Source: Terriglobia bacterium
GTDB lineage: Bacteria; Acidobacteriota; Terriglobia; 2-12-FULL-54-10
Length of the DNA: 64,000 nt
Assembly (NCBI GenBank): GCA_963666975.2
Contig: CAXVYR010000004.1
Coordinates: forward strand, 2,144,001 to 2,208,000
Reading direction: 5' to 3'
Below, one piece after another: positions 1,242-21,281 of this stretch (the first letter of the stretch is position 1; the number at the start of each line of letters is the position of its first letter). The notes beneath the pieces were generated by a model that saw only the letters and a list, made by a program, of their open reading frames with translations, had not been told where the DNA came from and ran no database searches. A program made the translations under genes and the position numbers.

Positions 1242-3119
1242 CTACTCGATCTGTTTGACGGCCAGGCTTCCCAACTCGACCTGGGGTCCGGCGGGCTGTC
1301 GGCCCAGATCCCGCGCGAGCGAAGGAACCAGGTGAACAACCTTGCCTCCCACCACCGTCATGAGAACATTGATGTCGGCGAGCTGCTCTACCGGCACGGA
1401 TAAAAAATCTTTATCGATTACCATGAAGTCAGCAAATTTCCCCGCTTCCAGAGATCCCAGATCCTCCTCACGGAACAGGTAATGCGATCCCCAGGTGGTG
1501 CCCGATTTGAGCATCGGCACGCGATCCACCGCCTGGTTCTGGCCATAGACCTTCCCATCCCACGATTTCCGGGTCACGCCGATGACCAGCAAGTCGAAGA
1601 CGTTCCAGCTCGTGGAAGCCAGAGGACGGTCGCCCTCAAACGACGTCATTAAACGGGCGTCCAGGGCCGTTTTTCTGGGGACGATCCGGTCCATTCCGCG
1701 TTCCCCAAAATGCTCAAACTCGAAGGGGGGACGCTCAAAGATGGAGATATTCATCATCCCCATTACCATCCCCAGCCCGGCTATCCGCTCGGCTTGGTCC
1801 CGTCGGGGAGCTCCGTAGCCGTGATCGATTCCATGTCGGCGGGCGCGAATCTGCTCCAGGCTAAGGCCTCCCTCACGGCTCGCCTTTTCGATCAGTTCCA
1901 GCAAGTTATCGATGTCCTTGTCCCCGTCCGTGTGAAAGCCTGTCAATCTGCCGCCTGCTTTGATGACGGCGTAAATTTGCTCGTAGAGCGGCGTGCCGGG
2001 GATGATGGTGCACGTGTTTTTCATTGTTTTCGCGTATTCTGTAAGCGGCGTCAGCGTGCTGCAATTCATACCTATCCCGCCGGGCTCTCCCAGACCGGCA
2101 AACCACAAGTAATCCGAGCCCTGTCCAAAGCGCGTTGCAATATCCGCTACCAGGTACTCGTCGCGATAATCGAAGGGCCAACCCCAATCCCAGGAGAAAC
2201 GAATGGCCATCTCTCCCCGGCGGTCGAGCTCCTTGTAAGCCTTCAGGAAGTTGGGGGAGTAGATGGAGGAATTGAATGTGGTGACGCCGTATCCGGCCCA
2301 CCACGGCAGTCCCACCCGTTCCATTTCGACGATCAGGTCCACGCGATCGCCCAGAAGGATTTCAGGCTCGAAGGTCCGATACCCCCCCACTCCCGCTCCG
2401 ATTCCAGTCTGTGGATCGATCTGGATGAAACTAGCGCCCTGCGAATCTAAGGCTTGAATCAACCCGATGGCCCTGGAATTGTAGGTGGCGCCTGTAAAGG
2501 CGCTCCGGACCGTGACCGGGTTGTTGGGCGCGATCGCATCCAAATTGGCTTTTAGGATCCGAGGCTCATGCTTGTAGGGATGGCCGTGGCCGGCCGAGAA
2601 CCACGAACGGACTTCGTGATAGAACTCGTAGTTCTCTCCAAAGGACAAGACAGCCCGAATCCACTGCCCCGGCCGCGCCCGCCGCACCGCTTCTCGCATC
2701 CTTTGCTCCATCTGGGTCAGCTGTTGCTCGGCCGGGCCTTGCAGAAAAATGTGGATCGCAACATCTTCCGGAATCACTTTCTGAACGAGGTAGGGATTCG
2801 TCATATCCCAATCGCTGGGATGCTCGTGTGTCATGATGAATCCCGGCAGCACCATCTTCCCTTTCAGATCCATCACCTGGGTAGCCCCGCCGGCCATTGC
2901 CCGGATTTGAGCGTTATTGCCAACGGCCACAATCCTCCCATCCCGGATCGCCATGGCCTCCGCAATTGTGCCGGGATTGGAATTAAAAGAGGCATCATCC
3001 ACGGTCACGATTCTGGCGTTAACGACAATTAATTCCGGCTGCTGCGCCATCGCGAACCGAGTCCCCCCAAGCATAAAGATCCATAGAATCAGAAATCGAG
3101 ATATCGGCATCCCTTTCAT
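1242..3119 (-). CDS. Secreted YtcJ-like amidohydrolase
   Basis: NARIVT...DLKGKMVLPGFIMTHEH, C-terminal GSLEAGKFADFMV; start moved to ATG 3119 behind AAGGAG; signal-peptide-like N-terminus. Confidence 0.9.
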   Translation of the reverse strand: MKGMPISRFLILWIFMLGGTRFAMAQQPELIVVNARIVTVDDASFNSNPGTIAEAMAIRDGRIVAVGNNAQIRAMAGGATQVMDLKGKMVLPGFIMTHEHPSDWDMTNPYLVQKVIPEDVAIHIFLQGPAEQQLTQMEQRMREAVRRARPGQWIRAVLSFGENYEFYHEVRSWFSAGHGHPYKHEPRILKANLDAIAPNNPVTVRSAFTGATYNSRAIGLIQALDSQGASFIQIDPQTGIGAGVGGYRTFEPEILLGDRVDLIVEMERVGLPWWAGYGVTTFNSSIYSPNFLKAYKELDRRGEMAIRFSWDWGWPFDYRDEYLVADIATRFGQGSDYLWFAGLGEPGGIGMNCSTLTPLTEYAKTMKNTCTIIPGTPLYEQIYAVIKAGGRLTGFHTDGDKDIDNLLELIEKASREGGLSLEQIRARRHGIDHGYGAPRRDQAERIAGLGMVMGMMNISIFERPPFEFEHFGERGMDRIVPRKTALDARLMTSFEGDRPLASTSWNVFDLLVIGVTRKSWDGKVYGQNQAVDRVPMLKSGTTWGSHYLFREEDLGSLEAGKFADFMVIDKDFLSVPVEQLADINVLMTVVGGKVVHLVPSLARDLGRQPAGPQVELGSLAVKQIE

Positions 3120-3423
3120 TTTTTTTCTCCTTTCGGCAGGTTCCACCGAACGCCCCAGTTTAATCGTATGTCGCGGAACAGAACAGCGGTTAGTGAAGTT
3201 GGCATTCTGGCACAAATAGCGTAACACTGGAACCGGTTTTCTCGATCCGCTAAATACTGCTGCCGCGCTCCATCCCAGGTAAAGCTGTTTAGCGACGTCT
3301 CGGGCCTCCGGTCTCGCTTGTTTGCAGGGTTTTCTTGTAAGGAAGCAAATTGAGCCAGCGATTAAGAAGACCCGCCTGTCAACGACCTGAAGCGCCCCAT
3401 AAAATGAATCGAAACCGTGCGAC

Positions 3424-6360: not shown

Positions 6361-8592
6361 ATGAGTGTTAGACCAAACCGAAGGTTCTTGCGCAGCAATT
6401 GGAACGTTATTGCCACGCTGACCGTTATTACTCTGATTGCCGTGTGGATCGTATTTCCGAATGGGGGGAACCTCTCGGGAGCATCTGCGAAGGGTCGTTC
6501 CTCTTGGTGGCCGCAGACGGGGGGGCCGCAGTTGATATCCGTGCAGCCATTCCCTGAAATGGAGGGAGCCATCTGCGAATGGGTGCCGGCCAGCGCTTCG
6601 GGAAACGACACCCTCGCCGCCTCTTTTCGTCCTGCAGCCTTGCTGAACCATGCGTTGCAAGGCGCGGCACAAAGCGCCCCGGATGGTGTAAGAACCGCCA
6701 CCGAGATTGAACGCGCGCCGCTGCGGGTCATCCGGGACACCTACCCGACATACAGCGCCATCGCCGTCGACACCACCTCTAATGAAGTGTACATGCAGGA
6801 TGAGAACCTGTTCGGCTTGAAGGTGTTCAACCGTCTGGACAACACTCCGCCGAACGCCGCATTTACCGAGCCGAAGCGAGTGATTTCCGGTCCAAACACG
6901 AAGCTCGAGTTTAATTGCGGCCTGTATATAGACCAGAAGACGGGCGACGTCTATTCAGTGAACAACGACACTATGGACACCTTGACGGTGTTCGCTCGCG
7001 GGGCCAGCGGAAATGCGACGCCCAAACGGGCGCTCCACACTCCGCACGGAACCTACGGAATCGCCGTAAACGAGGCCGTGCAGGAACTGTTCCTCACCAT
7101 CGAGCACATCAACGCCGTGGTGGTGTACCGGAAGCTGGCCGACGGGGAGGAAAAGCCGCTGCGGACGCTGCGCGGGCTTCAGACTCAACTGGAGGACCCG
7201 CACGGGATCGCCGTGGACGCGAAAAACAAGTGGCTGTTCGTCGGCAACCACGGCAACCATAAACTGAGCGAGGCTCCCTGGACGGGGCGGTTTGAGCCTC
7301 CCGCGATCACGGTTTATCCGCTGGAAGCCAGCGGCGACACCGCTCCGCTGCGGGTGATCGAAGGTCCCAAGACTCAATTGAACTGGCCGTCAGCGATGTT
7401 TATCGACGAGGAGCGCCAGGAGCTGTACGTAGCCAACGATGTGGGCGACTCCATCCTGGTTTTCCGCAGCACCGACAGCGGGAACGTGGCTCCCATCCGG
7501 ATCGTCAAAGGTCCGCAAACGCAGATCAAAAACCCCACCGGCGTGTTTGTAGATTTGAAAAACGACGAGCTCTGGGCCTCCAACATGGGAAACCACCGCG
7601 CGGTGGTATTCCCCCGCTCGGCGAACGGCAACGTCGCGCCGCTGCGCGTCATCCGGAGCGCCCCGGCGGAAAAGATGGCCCTGGCCATCGGCAATCCCGG
7701 CGCTGCCGCCTATGACAGCAAACGCGAAGAGATTCTGGTTCCCAACTGAGTGGCCCACCCGCAAATTGCGATCTTCGCCAGGCTGGCGAAAGAAAATTCC
7801 AAGCCCACCCGTTTGCTTTCCGGCCAGGCAACACGGCTGGCCCGCACCATGCACGACATCCGCTATGACGCGATCCACGATGAAATAATCGTGCCGAACC
7901 CTTTCGCACAAGCGATCCTGGTTTTCCGGGGAGGCGCCGACGGCGAAGAAGCGCCGATTCGCATCATTCAGGGGCCCCATACGCTGTTGCAGGGAACGGG
8001 CGCGGCGGCGGGCGGAGTGGACCGCCTGGACGTCGATCCGGTCCACGATGAAATCTTCGTCCCCGCCGGGGAAAAGATTTTGGTGTATCCGCGGACGGGC
8101 AACGGCGACGTGCCACCGTTGCGGGTCATCGAAGGCCCCGACACCACGCTCTACAGAGCGCAAGCGATTGCCGTGGACCCGGTTCATAACGTCATCGTGG
8201 CCGGCACGCACAGGAGTTACAACAACGGTCAGGGGGCCCTGCTGATCTTCAACCGCACCGACAACGGAAACGTCAGGCCCTCCAGAATCATCATGGGACC
8301 GAAGGCGGAGATCGGCAATATGAACCAGATTTTGATCCATCCGCCCAAGGGCTGGATCGTGGCGGCACAGACGGGAAACTCCTACGGGGTGCTGGAGCCG
8401 GAAGGCGTCTATGTCGGCGTCTGGAGCATCTACGACGACGGCGACGTTCCCGCGCGCTGGAAGCTCGCCGGAGATAAGAGCCTCATTAAGAAGCCGCGCG
8501 GGATCGCGCTGAACCCCAAGAACAAAGAGCTGATCGTCGCCGACATGCGGCTCAATGCGATGTTGACGTTTTACTTCCCGGAGATTTTTTAG
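6361..8592 (+). CDS. Exported NHL/YVTN-like beta-propeller repeat protein with in-frame UGA at codon 463 (candidate selenoprotein, 743 aa)
   Basis: ORFs 6361-7749 and 7750-8592 are in frame and separated only by TGA 7747-7749, which falls inside a repeat (EILVPN*VAHPQIAIF); ~50-55 aa repeats APLRVI.GP.T.L..P.GIAVD; hairpin at 7772-7793. Confidence 0.8.
7750..7793 (+). promoter_or_regulatory. Candidate bacterial SECIS element
   Basis: TC-TTCGCC-AGGCT-GGCGAA-A-GA hairpin; apical loop starts 31 nt after the UGA; core identical in the paralogue. Confidence 0.7.
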
Positions 8593-8823: not shown

Positions 8824-8979
8824 GGTTTTTTCGGATACGGTCTTAGAAGAACATATGTTTGGCGGAACTATGTTTGATGGGTGGGCGGCCTAAAAAATGC
8901 GGACAGTCCCGACATTTCATTTCCTTGACACGAATCGTCTCTTGTGTTCGAACCTAGCCACCCGATCATCGGAGGACGC

Positions 8980-10203
8980 GTGAACACCATGAAATCCAGC
9001 CGCCGGCGTTTCTTGAAGGATGGCGCCATACTGACCGGTTTGGTCGCCGGGACAGTGCAATCTGCAAGCGGACAAACGCCCGGCCCCGAGGAAGCCGCCC
9101 ATCGCTCGGCTGGCTTTGTGCGCGCGATTGGCGAGCGATCACGTCTTGAAACCTCGGCACGCGCGTGGTCTGATTCTTCCACGGGCCGCGTGACTTCGTC
9201 GCTGACTCCGCTGCAAAACTCCAAAGGAATGATCACGCCTTCGATGCTTCATTTTGAACGCCACCACGCGCGTGTCCCGGACATCGACCCCCGTCAGTAT
9301 CGTCTCCTGATCCACGGCCTGGTGGATCGCCCGCTGATTTTTACAGTGGCGGAGTTGGAGCGCCTGCCTTCCGTATCGCGGATCTATTTCCTCGAATGCT
9401 CGGGCAATAGCCGCAATCCGGGCCGGGGAAACGCGGAGACAGTCCAGGGAACCCACGGCATGACCAGTTGCAGCGAATGGACGGGGGTCCCGCTGTCCCT
9501 GTTGCTCCAAGAGGCGGGGGTGCAAAAGGGGGCAAGCTGGCTGGTGGCGGAGGGCGCAGACGCAGCCAAAATGACGCGGAGCATTCCGCTCACGAAGGCC
9601 ATGGACGACATTCTGGTGGCCTACGGGCAAAATGGCGGGGCGCTTCGTCCTGAGCAGGGCTACCCGTTGCGGCTGCTGATCCCCGGATGGGAAGGAAACA
9701 TCAGCATCAAGTGGCTGCGGCAAATCAAGGTGGTGGACCAGCCCTATATGACAAGAGAAGAAACCTCCCGCTACACCGACCTGATGCCGGATGGCCGCGC
9801 GCGCCAGTTCACTTTTGAGATGGACGCTAAATCAGTCATCACATTTCCTTCCGGCGGACAGAATCTGCCGGGCCCCGGATTCTACGAAATCACGGGCCTG
9901 GCTTGGTCCGGCAGAGGCGCAATCCGCAGGGTGGAAGTATCCACCGACGGCGGCGCGTCCTGGCAGGACGCCCAGCTTCAGGAGCCGGTACTGCGATTCG
10001 CGCATACCCGGTTTCGCTTCGCCTGGAAATGGGACGGCGGCGAGGCCGTGGTCCAGTCCCGCTGCATCGATGAGCAGGGTGGGGTTCAGCCGACCGTGGA
10101 CGATCTGATCCGGGTCCGGGGAAGGAGCTATAATTATCACTCCAACCACATTCAAGCCTGGAAGATCAACCGTAATGGAAGCGTGCAAAATGCGCTGGTC
10201 TGA
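8980..10203 (+). CDS. soxC: SoxC-like molybdopterin oxidoreductase (sulfite oxidase family), Tat-exported
   Basis: SRRRFLK Tat motif, LHFERHH, Mo-ligand FLECSGN, LRPEQGYPLRLLIPGWEG, ITGLAWSG; GTG 8980 behind GGAGG. Confidence 0.9.
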   Translation: MNTMKSSRRRFLKDGAILTGLVAGTVQSASGQTPGPEEAAHRSAGFVRAIGERSRLETSARAWSDSSTGRVTSSLTPLQNSKGMITPSMLHFERHHARVPDIDPRQYRLLIHGLVDRPLIFTVAELERLPSVSRIYFLECSGNSRNPGRGNAETVQGTHGMTSCSEWTGVPLSLLLQEAGVQKGASWLVAEGADAAKMTRSIPLTKAMDDILVAYGQNGGALRPEQGYPLRLLIPGWEGNISIKWLRQIKVVDQPYMTREETSRYTDLMPDGRARQFTFEMDAKSVITFPSGGQNLPGPGFYEITGLAWSGRGAIRRVEVSTDGGASWQDAQLQEPVLRFAHTRFRFAWKWDGGEAVVQSRCIDEQGGVQPTVDDLIRVRGRSYNYHSNHIQAWKINRNGSVQNALV

Positions 10204-10744
10204 TCTTTTGATCCCGGCAGTTTTCTTGGTTGTCTGCGCCGCGGCGCAGGCGCAGTCGCCCGCCTATGGCGTGGGCAGAACGCCGAGCGCCAAAGCAATT
10301 CGTGCGTGGGACATCGCCATTGGACCCGAGGGAAAGGAACTTCCGCCAGGAAAAGGAACCGCGAAAGAAGGCGCCACGATCTACGCACAGCGGTGTGCGG
10401 CGTGCCACGGGCAGACGGGAACGGAAGGACCGTTCAGCCGCTTAGTGGGCGGCCAAGGAACACTGAACACCAATCGCCCTGTAAAGACGGTTGGAAGCTA
10501 CTGGCCATTTGCCACGACGATATGGGATTACATCAACCGCGCCATGCCCGACGATAAACCGGGATCGCTGAGCGCAGACCAAGTTTACGCGGTGACGGCG
10601 TTTCTCCTCTACCGGAATGGCATCATCCAGGAAAGCGACGTAATCGACGCCAAAAGTTTGCCGAAAATCCAAATGCCGAATCGCAATGGATTTGTTTCCG
10701 ATCCACGGCCGGATTGGAAAACGCCGTCTGGCGGTCGTAACTGA
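10190..10744 (+). CDS. soxD: SoxD-like monoheme cytochrome c
   Basis: CAACH heme motif, KTVGSYWPFATTIWDYINRAMP, MPNRNGF; overlaps soxC stop. Confidence 0.88.
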   Translation: MRWSDLLIPAVFLVVCAAAQAQSPAYGVGRTPSAKAIRAWDIAIGPEGKELPPGKGTAKEGATIYAQRCAACHGQTGTEGPFSRLVGGQGTLNTNRPVKTVGSYWPFATTIWDYINRAMPDDKPGSLSADQVYAVTAFLLYRNGIIQESDVIDAKSLPKIQMPNRNGFVSDPRPDWKTPSGGRN

Positions 10745-10801: not shown

Positions 10802-11887
10802 TTGCTTATAAATCCATCCGAGCCGCGAGACGAAAAGAAAACCCTCGAGCAATTCGACGCGGAATTAGCAAAGCTCCATATGCGCGGCCAGTGGAAGGCC
10901 GATGAACTGCTGGTCCAAACGATAGGCGGGCCGAAACCGGGAGGGAGCCCTTGCGTCTGGAAATGGTCCGCAGTCCATCCGCTGCTGCTGGAAGCGTGCG
11001 ATGTGCTGCCGGAAAGTTTCACGGCCCGACGTCACCTAGGCTTTATAAATCCCGGGCTGGAGCGGGGAGGAGCCACCCACACCATCCGCATGGGGCTGCA
11101 AATGGTGAGGCCGGGGGAGATCGCATGGGCTCACCGGCACACCATCGCAGCGCTTCGCTTTGTGGTCGCAGGGAGCAATCAGGCATACACCGTCGTCGAT
11201 GGCGAGGTCTGCCCCATGGAAAACTACGATTTGATTCTGACCCCGCAGTGGAGCTGGCACGATCATCACAACGAAAGCGGCGAAAACATCATCTGGCTGG
11301 ACGTTCTCGACGCCTCGTTGATTGCCTCGCTGAACGCAACGTTCTACGAGCCGTACGGGGAAAAACGCCAGCAAGTGAGGCGGTCCGGTGAGGAAGGCTT
11401 CCTTCCGGAGCGGGCAGGAGCCCAGCAACTGCCGCTGCGATACCCGTGGAGCGAAGCGGAGAAGCTGCTTGAAAAAATGGCGCACCTGGAAGGAAGCTCT
11501 TACGACGGTCTCTCCCTGGAGTATGTGAACCCCATGACGGGCGGCCCTGCGCTGCCGACACTGGGGTGCCGGGTGCAGATGTTGCGGCCGGGGGAGAGCA
11601 CGCAGGCTCACCGGCACATCTCGAGCGCCGTTTATTTTGTGGTGCGAGGAGAAGGCGAAACCGTTGTGGGAGACGAGCGGCTGGAATGGAACCGGCACGA
11701 TTCCTTTGCCGTCCCCAATTGGAGCTGGCACCGGCACATCAACCGCTCGAAGACGGACGCAGCCATTCTGTTCTCCGTAAACGATACTCCCGTATTTCAG
11801 GCGCTCGGTTTATACCGGGAAGAGCCGGAGAATTCCTTGCAACAGGCGGCGGCTCCCTTAGCGCCCGCTCCATTAGCAGGTTGTTGA
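10802..11887 (+). CDS. Gentisate 1,2-dioxygenase-like bicupin
   Basis: AWAHRHT..ALRFV, TPQWSWHDHHN, YVNPMTGGP..PT, HRH, PNWSWHRH. Confidence 0.88.
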   Translation: MLINPSEPRDEKKTLEQFDAELAKLHMRGQWKADELLVQTIGGPKPGGSPCVWKWSAVHPLLLEACDVLPESFTARRHLGFINPGLERGGATHTIRMGLQMVRPGEIAWAHRHTIAALRFVVAGSNQAYTVVDGEVCPMENYDLILTPQWSWHDHHNESGENIIWLDVLDASLIASLNATFYEPYGEKRQQVRRSGEEGFLPERAGAQQLPLRYPWSEAEKLLEKMAHLEGSSYDGLSLEYVNPMTGGPALPTLGCRVQMLRPGESTQAHRHISSAVYFVVRGEGETVVGDERLEWNRHDSFAVPNWSWHRHINRSKTDAAILFSVNDTPVFQALGLYREEPENSLQQAAAPLAPAPLAGC

Positions 11888-12732: not shown

Positions 12733-15594
12733 ATGAAACGAAAAAGATATCTGCTTAGCCTTGCTCTTTTTGCCGCTGCTTTGTTGGTTCCGAACTTCCA
12801 CGTTGTTGCGGCCACCTTATCCGGCACAATTTCGGACACCGAAGGGGCCACCGTCGCCGGGGCTCAAATCATCGTCCGGCAGCCCGATACAGATTTCTCC
12901 GAGATGGTGCTGACGGAAGAAGACGGAAGCTATTTTCTGGAATCGCTTCCTCCGGGAGTTTATACCGTTACCGTTAGAAAATCGGGGTATGCCGACCTGA
13001 CTCAGGGACGAGTCACTGCCGGCGACCCGGCGGAACCCGTGCGGCTGAACCTGCGGCTACAGTCCAGCCAGGAACAAACTACGGTCCGGGCAACCGAGGA
13101 ACTGAATCCCAACATCTTTATCGTGAAGCTGGATACAAATGAAATAAACAGAAATTTGGACAAGCGGGGAGCCAACATTCAATTCCTCCGGGAGTTTCGG
13201 TCGCAGGAGAATAATTACGGAGCAATGTACGGCCACCCGCTGCGGAGGGCAGATTTGCTCCGGCCCAGATCGCCGCTGAGGAACTTCCACGGCTCCCTGT
13301 ACAATTCGCATCAGAACAGCGCCCTCAACGCCCGCTCTTTTTTCACCGTGGGCAGCCTCAGGCCGTCCCGGCGAAATCAGTACGGGGCTACGTTGGGTGG
13401 GCCCCTCTTCAGCGACAAGCTGTCTTTCGATTTCGCCTGGAGCCAGACCCGGGATTCCGGGTTTGTGAATGGAAACGTTCAGGTGCCCCTGGAGAGCGAA
13501 AGGACTCCTCGCTCTTCGGACCCGCAGGTGAACGCCGTCATCGCGAGACTGCTCGAAGGATTTCCCGGAGACCTTCCCAACCTTCCGGACGTCAGCCCGC
13601 GTCAACTGAATACGAATGCGCTTCGGGACATCCGCAGAACGGCCTTTTCCACCCGGCTGGATTACCGGCCCGGCGAGGCGGATCAAATCGCCTTTGAGCA
13701 AAGGTTTTTGGATGCGACCGAGGTGCCGTTTGAAATCGTAGCCGGGCAAAACCCGGATACTTTTCTCCGGCCGCAGAGCACCCATCTGACGCACACCCAC
13801 ACTTTCTCTCCCAATACTCTCTCCCGGCTCTCCGTTGATTTTGACCGCCTGGCGGTTGTGCTCAATATTACGGACCGGTATAGAAATCTGCTCGCCCCGT
13901 TGGGAATTGACGTGGTTCCGGAATATGCTTTCGGCCAAGAAATCTCGGCGCTGGGGAGCGGGGGCCGTGGGTCGAGCCTTCCCCGCAGGCGAGTGGAGAA
14001 TCGGTTTTCTTTTGCTCCGGAAGTAACCCGCGTCCTCGGAAAACACACTCTTTCAGCCGGATTCCGAATCACCCGGTTGCGAATTAATGATCTGCAAAGC
14101 GATAACTCCCGAGGCCAGTTTTCCTTCACCCGGGACTTCGGTCGCTCCGCCGTGGAGAATTTCCTGCACGGAACACCCACCTCGTTTACGATTGCCCTCG
14201 GAGATCTCTATCGCGGATTTCGCAACTGGGAAAACGCCTTCTATTTGCAGGACACCATCCGGGCCAGTTCCCGCTGGACGCTTTCGCTCGGACTGCGATA
14301 CGAAATGGTGACGGCGCCGAACGAGGTGAACGGCCTCACTTCGATTGCCTACTCGACCGACGCCAATAACTTCGCTCCGCAGTTCGGTTTCGCATGGAAT
14401 CCAGGCGGGGGGAAGACGGTCGTGCGCGGCGGCTATGGGATTGCCTTCGGGTCCGTCTTTCCGATCCTCTACCAGCGGGCGCGCTTTAACCCGCCCGAAG
14501 TGCAGGTGATCAAAATTGATAATCCTGACCTGCTTAATCCTTTGGGCGGCGCCGCCGAAGTGAAGAGATCAGAGTTGAATCTGCTGAGTCCGGACTTGGT
14601 GGCTCCCTACTCGCACATGTATAACTTCGGCATCGAGCGAGAACTGCCGGCGAATCTGTTTTTCCGGATCGGATATATCGGGAGCCGCACGTTCAAATTG
14701 CCAACCCGTGCCATCTCCAACCGGGCCCAGCCGGTTCCGGGACTCTGCGAGGAGCGGGAGGGTTTCCCTTTTCTTTGGTGCGGGACGAATACGACCAACC
14801 TCAGGCGGCCTGATCAGCGGTTCGCACAGATCTCAACCGTCACGAGCGGCGGCATTAGCTATTTTGACGGCCTGCAGGTTGCCGTGGACAAGCGCATGGG
14901 CCGGGGATTGACCTGGAATGCCCGCTACACATTCAGCAAGGCCATTACCACTTCAGATACGCATTTTGCACAGATCGGAACAGGCTTCCACAACAGCACC
15001 ATTGAGGACGTCTTCGGCGACCTGAGAGGGCTCGCGCGGTTTGACACTCCGCACGCGCTGACGCTCGGCTACCGGTTTGAGCTTCCCTGGGCGCGCAACC
15101 AGCGAGGAATCCGGTCCCTGCTGCTGGGTGGATGGAACATTTCCGGGACGACCACCTTCCGATCGGGCACTCCCACCCACGCGCATACCGGTTCGGATTC
15201 TCCCGGCTTTGGAAACGCGGACGGAGTGGGCGGGGACAGGCCAAACCTGCTGAACCCTGCGATTCTTTGGAAGAGCGTGGATCACCCGGATACCGCCCGC
15301 TTCATCTTGGCCAAGGAAAATTTCGATACGATCATCCCGCCGGGAGGGCGGGGGAATCTTGGCTATCAGACTTTCCGGAACGACGGCACGCATAATTGGA
15401 ATATCGCCGTCGCGAAGGATTTCCCTGCCGGGGAAACGGGCACTTTTCAACTTCGCACCGAGTTTCTCAACTCCTTCAACCAGCCGCAATTTGACGAAGC
15501 GAGGCACGTGATATCCGCAGACACCTTCGGAAGAATCCTGAATACGTCAAACAAGGGACGCGTCATCCAGATCATGCTGCAATTTCGCATGTAA
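12733..15594 (+). CDS. TonB-dependent receptor, acidobacterial Oar-like type with N-terminal carboxypeptidase-regulatory-like domain
   Basis: Signal peptide, LSGTISD..GA.V.GA, NSALNARSFF, RNQYGATLGGP, YLQDT...LSLGLRYE, NFAPQFGFAW, LRTEFLNSFNQPQF. Confidence 0.9.
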   Translation: MKRKRYLLSLALFAAALLVPNFHVVAATLSGTISDTEGATVAGAQIIVRQPDTDFSEMVLTEEDGSYFLESLPPGVYTVTVRKSGYADLTQGRVTAGDPAEPVRLNLRLQSSQEQTTVRATEELNPNIFIVKLDTNEINRNLDKRGANIQFLREFRSQENNYGAMYGHPLRRADLLRPRSPLRNFHGSLYNSHQNSALNARSFFTVGSLRPSRRNQYGATLGGPLFSDKLSFDFAWSQTRDSGFVNGNVQVPLESERTPRSSDPQVNAVIARLLEGFPGDLPNLPDVSPRQLNTNALRDIRRTAFSTRLDYRPGEADQIAFEQRFLDATEVPFEIVAGQNPDTFLRPQSTHLTHTHTFSPNTLSRLSVDFDRLAVVLNITDRYRNLLAPLGIDVVPEYAFGQEISALGSGGRGSSLPRRRVENRFSFAPEVTRVLGKHTLSAGFRITRLRINDLQSDNSRGQFSFTRDFGRSAVENFLHGTPTSFTIALGDLYRGFRNWENAFYLQDTIRASSRWTLSLGLRYEMVTAPNEVNGLTSIAYSTDANNFAPQFGFAWNPGGGKTVVRGGYGIAFGSVFPILYQRARFNPPEVQVIKIDNPDLLNPLGGAAEVKRSELNLLSPDLVAPYSHMYNFGIERELPANLFFRIGYIGSRTFKLPTRAISNRAQPVPGLCEEREGFPFLWCGTNTTNLRRPDQRFAQISTVTSGGISYFDGLQVAVDKRMGRGLTWNARYTFSKAITTSDTHFAQIGTGFHNSTIEDVFGDLRGLARFDTPHALTLGYRFELPWARNQRGIRSLLLGGWNISGTTTFRSGTPTHAHTGSDSPGFGNADGVGGDRPNLLNPAILWKSVDHPDTARFILAKENFDTIIPPGGRGNLGYQTFRNDGTHNWNIAVAKDFPAGETGTFQLRTEFLNSFNQPQFDEARHVISADTFGRILNTSNKGRVIQIMLQFRM

Positions 15595-19046: not shown

Positions 19047-21281
19047 TCAAAAAATCTCCGGGAAATAATACGTCAGCACGGAGTTGAGCCTCATGTCCGC
19101 CACGATGATCTCTTTGGTCCTCGGATTCAAGGCCACGCCGCGAGGTCTTTCAATCGTGCTTTGGGGTCCGCCGATCTTCCACCGTGCGGGAATATCGCCG
19201 TGATCGCGAATGCTCCAGACACCGATAAAAGCGCCCTCCGGCGTCGCCGCCGCCCAGTCGGTGGATTGAGGAATGATGATCCAGCCGCGGGGCGGATAGA
19301 CCTGGATCTGCTCCACGATGGAGATTTCTGTCGCAGGCCCGCGAATGATGCCTCGCGGCTGCACATTGCCATTGTCGGTGCGGTTGAAGATCAGCAGGGC
19401 CCCGCTTCCCCTGCCGCCTCCGTATTCGGTGAGCTTATTGAGCCCCACCACCACCACGTCGTTGACCGGATCAACCGCGACGCTGTTGGCGTTGCGCAAT
19501 TGGGTCGCGGGACCTCGGATCACCCGGATGGGGGCAACATTCCCATTCGCTTCCCTGGGGAAGACCAGTACTGAATCCCGGTTGGGGACGAATATTTCAT
19601 TGTTGATCGGGTCCACGTCCAGCCGGTCCGGCCTCTTCAACTGGGTGCGGGAACCCTGAATGATCCGGATCGGCGCCTCTTCCCCTGTAGCTCCGCCTCG
19701 GAATGTCAGAATCGTCTGGCCGAACTGATTCGGCACCAGGATTTCATCATGAACCGCATCATAGCGGATATCGTGCATGGTTCGTGCCAGCAGCGTCTTT
19801 TGTCCTGCCAGCAATCGATGGGCGGTTGCTGTCCCGTTCGCCAGCCTGGCGAAGGCCGCAATCTGCGGATGGGCCACTCAGTTGGGCACCAGAAGCTCAT
19901 CCCGCTTGGAGTCATAGGCCACACCCCCCGGATTGCCGATCGCCATCGCCACTTTTCCGAGCGGCGCACTGCGGATGGTGCGCAGCGGCGCGGCATTCCC
20001 GTTCGCCGTGCGCCGGTAAATGGTGGCCGAATGGTTGCCCATATTGGAGACCACCACCTCGTCGTTTTTGTTGTCCACATAAATGCCGGTGGGGTTTCGC
20101 AGGCCGGTTGCGGAACCTTCGAGGACCCGGAGAGGCGCTACGTTGCCGCTATCGGTCGCGCGGAAGACCAGGATCGAATCCGCTCCGTCATTGGCGACAA
20201 ACAGTTCCCCGTGCTCCCGGTCCAGATAGATTTGTCCCGGCCAGTTCAACTGCGTCCGGGAGCCTTGGATGACCCGCAACGGTGCGGCGTCTCCGCTGGC
20301 GGTCCGCTCGTGCACGGTGATCGAGGGAGGCAGTGTTTTTCCGCTGCCCGGCACCGCCCTGCTTCGAGTCAGCGGCCAGTTCTCCCGGCCGGGATTCCCG
20401 GCGTCCTCCCGCACTTGATGAACCGAGCCGTGATTGGCCACAAAGATCCAATCATTCTCCGGGTCCACGGCAATCCCATGAGGATCGGCGAGACCGGCAC
20501 GATCCCCCTGGATGAGGCGGATCGGGCCGTCTTCCCCTTGCGCCATCTTGGGATAAACCACCACGGCGCTGTCGTGCTCCACCGTCAGAAACATTTCCTG
20601 GTTTTCTTCGTCCACTGCGATGCCGTAGGTTCCGTGCGGAGTGTGAAGTTCGCGGTCGGGAGGAACGTCGCCCCGCGCCTGGCGGGAAAAGATGACCAAT
20701 GTATCCATGGTGTCGTTGTTGACCGAATAGATGTCCCCATTTGCCGGATCCACATAGAGCCCGCAGTTAAACTCCACCTTGGTCCTGTGCCCGCCGATTA
20801 CGCGCTTCGGCTCGGTCATAGTAGCTGTCGGCGGAGTATTGGCCTCTCGGTCATACACCATGATTTGGAAGAGGTTCTCGTCCTGCAGAATGATCTCATC
20901 CCTCACAGGATCAACGGCCACGGCGCTGAAGGTTGGATAAGTATCCTTGATCGCCCGCACGGGAGCGCGGTCGGCGTCGATGGAAGCTCCCCCGTCATTG
21001 GCGTTCTCTGCGAACACTCGCTCCTGCCGCAGAGCAGCCACCAGCCGGCTCTGCGAACTGGCCGGAACCCACTCGCACATGGCGCTGCCAGCGGCGGGCA
21101 TGGGCTCAACCGAGACCAGTTGAGCGAAGCCCGAGGGTCTCCGCAGAGCCGCCTGGGAGCTCGCCTGGAAAGCAGGCTGCTCCGTGTCCCCGGCTGAAAT
21201 GATCCATCCGGCGCTAACGGCCATTGCAGCGAGAATCGCAATGACACCCGGACGCCATCCAGATTGGTTGCTACGCGGCAT
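19047..21281 (-). CDS. Second exported beta-propeller repeat protein with in-frame UGA at codon 468 (candidate selenoprotein, 744 aa)
   Basis: ORFs 19878-21281 and 19047-19877 are in frame, joined by TGA 19880-19878 (ELLVPN*VAHPQIAAF); paralogue of 6361-8592; hairpin at 19855-19834. Confidence 0.8.
19834..19877 (-). promoter_or_regulatory. Candidate bacterial SECIS element
   Basis: CC-TTCGCC-AGGCT-GGCGAA-C-GG, same spacing from UGA as in the paralogue, compensatory T-A to C-G pair. Confidence 0.7.

Follow-up and report, generated by a model that had tools for sequence, protein, structure and literature searches.

The 64,000-nucleotide (nt) stretch analysed here, called the window below, covers positions 2,144,001 to 2,208,000 of contig CAXVYR010000004.1 from a Terriglobia bacterium (Acidobacteriota), and it contains two paralogous genes, copy 1 and copy 2, each with an in-frame TGA that is followed by an RNA hairpin. 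In copy 2, the raw open reading frames (ORFs) at 19878-21281 (467 aa) and 19047-19877 (276 aa) abut each other and are split solely by the TGA at 19878-19880, which stands in the context ELLVPN-TGA-VAHPQIAAF and is the only in-frame TGA within the gene. The features that matter for the argument are as follows, with plus-signed distances counted from the U of the UGA.

19047-21281, minus strand: copy 2, drawn from its ORFs and translation as a single gene of 744 sense codons and a terminal TGA stop (19047-19049).
19878-19880, minus strand: in-frame UGA at residue 468, proposed to be read as selenocysteine (Sec) from the Cys found in homologues and the TGA found in relatives.
19856-19868, minus strand: small upstream hairpin CCGCA-GAU-UGCGG, +13 to +25, from folding and comparison.
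19835-19855, minus strand: main stem-loop of the proposed selenocysteine insertion sequence (SECIS), +26 to +46, with the core UUCGCC-AGGCU-GGCGAA at 19837-19853 and the apical GGC at 19844-19846.
6361-8592, plus strand: copy 1, the paralogue, 743 aa, with its UGA at 7747-7749, the small hairpin at 7759-7771 and the SECIS stem-loop at 7772-7792.

The two proteins have 420 identities in 760 positions (55%) with 42 gap positions, and in both the TGA lies in the shared motif LVPN-U-VAHPQIA, with UUCGCC-AGGCU-GGCGAA 25 nt 3' of it. The original prediction, made from the letters of the window, had described paralogues that diverged with indels and nevertheless keep TGA at the same residue, and this description holds. 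The same is true of the 17-nt core TTCGCCAGGCTGGCGAA (the 17-mer UUCGCCAGGCUGGCGAA), which is identical in the two copies at 7774-7790 and 19837-19853, its AGG Arg codon included, and of the small CGCA-nAU-UGCG hairpin noted 5' of the core in both. The sequence observation is therefore confirmed as real. Since TGA is also the terminal stop of six of the 14 Pfam-supported genes in the window, copy 2 among them, the codon is not globally reassigned.

The genome as a whole (4.23 Mb in four contigs, 98.9% complete) encodes tRNA-Sec together with SelA, SelB and SelD, all exceeding curated cut-offs. The tRNA-Sec has the anticodon UCA and scores 72.8 bits, SelB 371.8 bits against a cut-off of 242, SelA 563.5 bits against 268, and SelD 349.5 bits. 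The selD gene (G000:C4:1360322-1361257) is itself of the Sec type, with one in-frame TGA in the context ..VKAAG-U-ASKLSP.. and a hairpin, GUCCAAA-GGU-UUUGGAC, that begins 14 nt after the UGA. This hairpin served as an internal positive control for the SECIS comparison, and its loop is of the same A-GGY-U type as that of the element under study.

By tblastn, the genome contains eight full-length, intact paralogues. In each of them a TGA at the shared residue is the only in-frame stop, and a hairpin of the same kind comes after it. The count of two copies understated the family, which is large. In one paralogue UUCCCC..GGGGAA replaces UUCGCC..GGCGAA, so that the base pair is kept and the peptide FARLA becomes FPRLG. 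A ninth copy, at C4:2003420-2005036, has an internal deletion of about residues 205-440 with a frameshift at the junction; it retains the TGA and an intact hairpin of the UUUGCC..GGCA variant. At C1:7731-8129, C3:482019-482192, C3:1088474-1088836 and C2:86158-86281, short isolated segments match the C-terminal 30-144 residues of the family and are perhaps remnants of genes or a small domain in its own right.

The first line of evidence on the reading of the UGA comes from protein homologues, of which the best 120 were aligned from 3879 matches among 8000 scored candidates. At the column of the UGA, 87 of these 120 proteins are full-length and have Cys, 30 end exactly at ..LVPN, two have a gap and one has W. 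The W belongs to P0008 (LVPNWVAHPQIA), a protein from the Joint Genome Institute (JGI), and is most probably due to a gene caller that reads TGA as Trp. A FastTree phylogeny was built on residues 100-467 with the trait column excluded (122 rows, 120 of them labelled), and it requires at least six Sec/Cys changes among the labelled rows, five of which are forced by well-supported branches. It contains a clade of 71 rows that is all Cys and, separately, a clade of 40 rows with 30 Sec and nine Cys forms. Judged by these sequences, Sec and Cys replace each other at this site within the family, and such dynamic exchange is what the selenoprotein literature uses to recognise families (PMC12013277, in the part available).

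The DNA of the relatives agrees with this picture. Loci were fetched from species genomes (79) and from metagenomes (80). In the former, all 86 sites, found in 78 of the 79 loci, are TGA, and in the latter the 79 sites, found in 77 of the 80 loci, comprise 72 TGA, five TGC and two TGT. Altogether there are 165 distinct homologous windows of 105 nt, the copies of this genome included, 158 of which have TGA (the Sec forms) and seven TGY (the Cys forms). A divergent Cys form was also found at locus L177 (G403:C212:2000-4682), which is 49% identical to copy 2, has TGC in the context ..LVQS-C-IAQPQLVAFAKGA.. and reads FAKGA (TTC GCA AAG GGG GCG) in place of the element. It lies in a genome with 37 UGA-plus-hairpin sites, and Sec and Cys paralogues therefore coexist in one genome.

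The second line of evidence is the RNA element. The second loop nucleotide is G in 158 of the 158 Sec forms, and the next one is G in 152 and U in six; all six core pairs are intact in 148 Sec forms, and five of the six in the other ten. The hairpin is thus conserved in the Sec forms among the further homologues; a lack of such conservation had been named in advance as grounds for abandoning the idea of a recoding signal. According to section 5 of PMC13188914, the bacterial SECIS (bSECIS) consensus has a loop of 3-9 nt, a stem of 4-16 bp and 16-37 nt from the UGA to the loop, with G in the first two loop positions, mostly as N-G-[G/U]-N-N with the outer two paired, and a minimum free energy of -7.5 kcal/mol or lower. 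The element agrees with this consensus in all four respects, with a loop of 3-5 nt (A-GGC-U), a stem of 7-9 bp, a spacing of 30-31 nt between the UGA and the loop, and, for copy 2, energies of -8.2 kcal/mol for the core alone and -17.4 for the first 48 nt. Across the paralogues the core alone ranges from -7.2 to -9.0 kcal/mol and the 48 nt from -13.3 to -20.8; the value of -7.2 belongs to one of the eight, which reaches -17.4 with its extension.

Comparison of 150 distinct windows of 54 nt with RNAalifold lengthened the stem independently by two pairs, to 9 bp, with 95.1% of cells paired. For the whole structure, small hairpin included, 93.3% of cells are paired, compared with 33-53% when the 3' partners are slid; over all the comparisons made, the figures are 93-95% and 32-53%. 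The cells changed on both sides number 105 versus 38.7 +/- 5.2 in shuffles, none of 500 shuffles reaching the observed value. Among these pairs, 27-45 joins two wobble positions and occurs as CG (34), UA (30), AU (27), GC (22) and GU (2), that is, with all four Watson-Crick types, and is unpaired in 35 sequences. Pair 30-42 is CG in 142, UA in six and UG in two, and the UA changes are synonymous on both sides (Phe UUC to UUU, Ala GCG to GCA). The small hairpin keeps its three central pairs in 146-149 of the 150 windows, and two sequences are doubly compensated (CCGAG..CUCGG). The co-varying outer stem that was originally drawn with a bulge fared less well. Both copies in the window allow the bulged pairing, but it is only the minor form in which the stem is extended. 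Much better support goes to an extension without the bulge (columns 26-46 and 27-45), 27-45 being paired in 115 of 150 sequences and the bulged 27-46 in 80 of 150. Of the 35 sequences that lack pair 27-45, 13 can form 27-46.

The third line of evidence concerns the codons around the UGA. A dip in synonymous variation had been proposed as a test of the recoding signal, and a codon alignment of 142 distinct Sec genes with 413 informative columns contains one, at codons U+1 to U+15, and no other dip in the gene is as strong. Over these columns the mean relative codon entropy is 0.88. When the six-column windows of the whole gene are ranked, the bottom 13 are confined to a segment that starts two codons ahead of the UGA and ends 19 codons past it. 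The bottom five (0.16-0.31) do not extend beyond U+4 to U+15, and the minimum of 0.16 is reached at U+7 to U+13. Several codons are almost fixed, namely Pro U+4 as CCG (139 of 139), Ala U+7 as GCG (138 of 139), Ala U+10 as GCC (135 of 135) and Ala U+13 as GCG (136 of 140), and Arg U+11 is AGG in 135 of 139 sequences versus a share of 9.3% for AGG among Arg codons gene-wide. Between copy 1 and copy 2, the proportion of synonymous differences is 0.26 in U+1 to U+15, compared with 0.59 upstream and 0.64 downstream.

The same pair of genes gives a ratio of nonsynonymous to synonymous change (dN/dS) of 0.205 downstream of the TGA and 0.268 upstream. The absence of normal dN/dS beyond the UGA would have spoken against recoding, and the downstream value points the other way; together with the 55% protein identity of the downstream part and its continuity with the Cys-form relatives, it is evolutionary evidence for translation in the same frame 3' of the UGA. 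On this comparison, the coding sequence beyond the TGA is under purifying selection.

Taken together, the Sec machinery, the Cys homologues, the agreement with the bSECIS consensus, the synonymous dip and the downstream dN/dS support the recoding signal that was originally proposed, and we consider it very probable that the TGA at 19878-19880 is a Sec codon recoded through a canonical bSECIS. In the mechanism envisaged, SelB carrying Sec-tRNA(Sec) would bind the SECIS hairpin of the mRNA and deliver Sec to the ribosome at the UGA. The SECIS consists of a 9-bp stem with the A-GGC-U apical loop, about 30 nt from the UGA to the loop, and the small hairpin lies between the UGA and the main stem. 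The product would be one protein of 744 residues, not a fragment of 467 aa, and it would form an exported or membrane-anchored tandem beta-propeller of the NHL/lactonase-like kind. Actual incorporation of selenium at the UGA is what the comparative data lead one to expect. The fate of the loop in the Cys forms would also be in keeping with this mechanism, as the loop GG is lost in three of the seven Cys-form DNAs (AGAAU, AGAUU and CGAUU) versus none of the 158 Sec forms, a drift that fits a relaxed constraint after a change from Sec to Cys.

Several observations weigh on the other side. The 64-nt region folded alone is no stabler than shuffled sequences (z-scores of -1.12 and +0.05), and the support for the element is comparative, not thermodynamic. 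The negative control is thin, the seven Cys-form DNAs being one clade in which four have an intact hairpin, and at L177, the sole divergent Cys form examined, RNAfold draws a different, shifted hairpin. No meaningful match was obtained at 19700-20000 in Rfam, which may have no model for SECIS elements of this kind. SelA was not found in one of five other carrier genomes, G402. Finally, in 133 of 142 sequences the TGA is directly followed by GTG, which could in principle act as a restart codon.

This last point is the basis of an alternative in which the locus consists of two genes. Translation would stop at the TGA and restart at the adjacent GTG (TGAGTG), the proteins of 467 aa and 276 aa would assemble into the propeller, and the hairpin would serve coupling or mRNA stability. 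The GTG-started ORF of 276 aa does lie directly after the TGA, public gene callers report separate halves, the 30 homologues noted above end at LVPN, and cluster lengths in the Atlas are 431-504 aa and 273-303 aa. However, nine of the 142 genes have GTA or GTC at that position, neither of them a start that the ORF calling accepts (ATG, GTG and TTG), and there is no purine run resembling a Shine-Dalgarno sequence before the TGA, whereas GGAGGAGG precedes the true ATG. The break would moreover lie inside a blade, between the strands 462-467 and 474-478, and in the full-length relatives the chain runs on uninterrupted, with Cys at precisely this residue. A pair of genes also leaves unexplained why the loop follows the G-G/G-U rule, why the hairpin resembles that of selD and why Cys forms alone have lost the loop GG, and we regard this arrangement as very unlikely.

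Equally improbable is read-through without selenium, in which the hairpin would stimulate a near-cognate tRNA to insert Trp or Cys and SelB would play no part. Hairpins are known to promote read-through, and the W of P0008 could be cited in its favour, had it not the simpler explanation of a gene call with TGA as Trp. Yet the full Sec machinery is present here and SelB occurs in five of five other carrier genomes; the loop follows the SelB-type G-G/G-U rule in 158 of 158 sequences and matches the selD hairpin. The alternative residue, furthermore, is Cys (87 of 120) and never a Trp encoded by TGG, the sites in the fetched loci being TGA, TGC or TGT only.

That the interrupted genes are pseudogenes or products of assembly or sequencing errors, with a hairpin that merely reflects the conserved peptide FARLA, deserves hardly any credence: the copy at C4:2003420-2005036 is truly degenerate, but the same TGA recurs in 158 distinct sequences, which stem from independent assemblies, the contigs of three other studies reproduce 19878-19880 (none bridging it by 31 nt on both sides), the downstream dN/dS is that of a coding sequence under constraint, and the synonymous-site constraint and the wobble covariation are beyond the reach of the peptide, which hence cannot explain the hairpin. 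The earlier judgement that error or recent pseudogenisation is very unlikely is borne out by the TGA sequences, the downstream dN/dS, the synonymous constraint and the covariation.

The public sequencing data behind these contigs are as follows. Twelve public runs, from four studies, contain the copy 2 gene almost entire (at least 0.97 of the words sampled), and the contigs from three of these studies have no difference at 19878-19880. At 19797-19946, depth in the contigs exceeds that elsewhere in the gene by 7-12 times and the assemblies are interrupted, which is why none of the contigs bridges the TGA by 31 nt on each side; the raised depth is expected if the element is common to many paralogues. 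The segment with the UGA and the SECIS thus behaves as a dispersed repeat. Among the four runs whose contigs were placed on the gene, the one RNA run, whose library possibly contained DNA, gave a contig of 270 nt at 20667-20936 and a piece of 33 nt at 19872-19904, the latter maybe from a paralogue, and no contig downstream of the UGA, an outcome that is neutral as to translation.

Homologous sites are numerous in some related genomes. A census with a degenerate UGA-plus-hairpin pattern (up to three mismatches, with the reversed pattern as a control) found nine sites in this genome and 25, 23, 37 and 17 in four related Acidobacteriota genomes, the control giving none anywhere. The genome with 37 sites is a fragmented metagenome-assembled genome (MAG), and the one with 25 is recorded as a single chromosome. 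Full-length protein matches in the four related genomes nearly always have exactly one TGA. Among the other carrier genomes, namely these four and G405, SelB exceeds the cut-off in five of five and SelA in four of five. By their labels the loci come from Acidobacteriota (Terriglobia, Bryobacterales/Bryobacteraceae, Solibacteraceae and Candidatus Sulfopaludibacter), from two Binatia and from a Verrucomicrobiia MAG. Only two of 401 sampled genomes of the phylum matched the query P0001 at E <= 1e-30, and the family is rare in that sample outside a few lineages.

The protein itself belongs to the beta-propellers. Copy 2 exceeds the Pfam gathering cut-offs for NHL (38.2 bits, cut-off 20), Lactonase (33.8, cut-off 21.7) and Arylesterase (24.4, cut-off 21.3), and the AlphaFold2 model, built with an alignment of 84 sequences (A3), likewise has a propeller fold. 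In this model, which has a predicted local distance difference test score (pLDDT) of 89.6 and a predicted template modelling score (pTM) of 0.85, residues 1-100 are poorly ordered and include a hydrophobic helix at 13-24, and an all-beta region of about 12 four-stranded blades follows, which most simply would be two six-bladed propellers. No NCBIfam model matched over its cut-off, the YncE equivalog NF052280 scoring 17.6 against 400 (copy 1) and the 6-phosphogluconolactonase model NF008258 scoring 16.6 against 370 (copy 2). Foldseek against the PDB returned generic tandem propellers only (such as WD40 doubles and LRP6/LRP2; TMq 0.25-0.32), and a profile search of PDB sequences gave matches at the level of the NHL repeat only, with a best E of 2.8e-7; neither provided a functional analogue. 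Three further features of the protein were mapped.

21192-21245, minus strand: N-terminal hydrophobic segment, residues about 13-30, a putative signal peptide or signal anchor, from the sequence and the predicted helix 13-24.
21075-21077, minus strand: Cys69 (CEWVP), almost invariant, in a low-confidence N-terminal arm (pLDDT 52-65).
20763-20765, minus strand: Cys173 (EFNCGLY), in the inner strand of blade 2.

The hydrophobic segment suggests that the product is exported or membrane-anchored. Sec468 follows the strand 462-467, in the loop that leaves the second strand of blade 7, and the invariant residues R500, H503 and Y507 lead into blade 8. In propeller topology these two types of loop face the same side, which places Sec468 and the three residues on one face of the model, where they probably form one active site. 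The Sec site has no CxxU or UxxC motif, and the Sec may have a role in redox chemistry or as a nucleophile. The two Cys residues common to both copies that had been singled out as candidate redox partners (CEWVP and EFNCGLY) are real and conserved among the Sec forms. C69 is found in 132 of 142 (seven of the rest being gaps) and in 80 of 84 sequences of A3, and is thus nearly invariant in Sec and Cys forms. C173 is Cys in 136 of 142 Sec forms and Ser in 58 of the 84 sequences of A3, which are mostly Cys forms, a pattern that could mean a Sec-linked partner or shared ancestry alone.

The closest known systems are the SelB-type selenoprotein genes. The fdhF gene of E. coli is the classic bacterial example, with a SelB-type SECIS just after the UGA. 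Like fdhF and the selD of this genome, the genes described here have an in-frame UGA, a hairpin that starts within 30 nt, a G-G/G-U loop and a spacing within 16-37 nt; Cys homologues exist, and the genome has SelA, SelB, SelD and tRNA-Sec. Unlike them, the family has an additional conserved hairpin, a small one, that separates the UGA from the main stem, and the family's element is nearly identical in sequence across more than 150 paralogues and orthologues, in the manner of a genomic repeat. With the NHL-repeat, seven-bladed lactonase and SGL propellers (PF01436, PF10282, PF08450 and PF01731) the protein shares similarity at the level of the repeat and an all-beta propeller fold, but it is twice as long, with about 12 blades. 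YncE-like is the name that JGI gives to the Cys forms of the family, although, as seen above, the score with the YncE model is far below its cut-off.

Like the catalogued selenoprotein families, this one is predicted from a Sec/Cys pair, a bSECIS and TGA homologues in other users of Sec. The available parts of the catalogues already include a few envelope-facing families outside the thioredoxin fold, for example a TonB-dependent receptor and an MtrB/PioB-type barrel. Unlike the catalogued families, the present one has no CxxU or UxxC, and its copy number (eight here, 17-37 sites elsewhere) looks unusual. The 2022 table of 87 families (PMC9312934, Table 1) contains no propeller, NHL, lactonase or YncE family, and neither do the nine families added in 2025 (PMC12013277, section 7). 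The accessible part of the 2026 catalogue (PMC13188914) has none of these names and none of PF01436, PF10282, PF08450 and PF01731. The main text of BSepDB, with 111 families (PMC13326102), has no such terms, although the supplementary Tables S2 of BSepDB and deep-Sep might list the family. No domain model or name is thus shared with a listed selenoprotein family in this comparison, outside of which lies the BSepDB family list (a supplement), and a literature search retrieved no paper linking selenoproteins to this fold. As nothing matched in the catalogues or the literature, the genes were rated as an apparently undescribed selenoprotein family with an ordinary bacterial mechanism, a strongly expanded family of putatively exported beta-propellers. 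The mechanism is standard; the novelty is in the protein family, the fold, the likely location and the unusual copy number.

A bolder proposal is that these genes represent a new class of selenoenzyme, a tandem propeller of the envelope in which Sec would work with an invariant Arg, His and Tyr and not in a CxxU motif, and which would be amplified to 17-37 UGA-plus-SECIS genes per genome in some soil and groundwater Acidobacteriota. We put this forward tentatively, as a possibility that is somewhat more apt to fail than to hold. If it were true, this would be the largest expansion of a single selenoprotein family known. Acidobacteriota, credited with three to four selenoproteins, would come near the most selenium-dependent genomes on record. 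For comparison, the available parts of the sources give three selenoprotein families and four proteins for the phylum in a 2006 survey (PMC1794560), three selenoprotein genes for Occallatibacter riparius (PMC12013277), and 46-63 selenoprotein genes in all for each of the top ten genomes of BSepDB, none of which is from Acidobacteriota (PMC13326102). The neighbouring TonB-type barrels and amidohydrolases would then suggest diversified Sec-dependent enzymes acting on imported substrates, a chemistry new to selenoproteins.

Recognition of the family has more immediate uses. Because gene callers split these genes at the UGA, the public databases searched contain many 'hypothetical' halves of 430-500 aa and about 275 aa, and the NCBI entries among the homologues are truncated hypothetical proteins. 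Recognising the family would correct many annotations. A large, probably extracytoplasmic Sec propeller without a thioredoxin-like motif offers a testable case of Sec outside the classic redox folds, and the nearly identical SECIS over many paralogues is a natural data set for the rules of SelB-SECIS recognition.

Gene neighbourhoods were surveyed by clustering the ORFs of 159 loci, many of which have short flanks, so that the counts are lower bounds. A TonB-dependent-type barrel with a CarboxypepD_reg domain lies near the family in 27 of the 159 loci, and amidohydrolase neighbours were found in 15 (Amidohydro_3) and six (Amidohydro_1). The DASS transporter next to copy 2 recurs in five loci, and the two genes beside copy 1, for a sulfite-oxidase-like protein and a cytochrome c, in one only. 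A function for the family was also sought from its gene neighbours, and the recurrence counts do not define one. In the window, the genes 3' of copy 1 on the plus strand encode a sulfite-oxidase-like molybdoenzyme (8944-10203), a c-type cytochrome (10175-10744) and a double-cupin protein (10802-11887). Further 3' on the same strand lies a TonB-dependent-type barrel with a CarboxypepD_reg domain (12733-15594), the sole one of these neighbours that recurs beyond isolated loci. An Amidohydro_3 protein is encoded at 1242-3227 on the minus strand, 3 kb upstream of copy 1.

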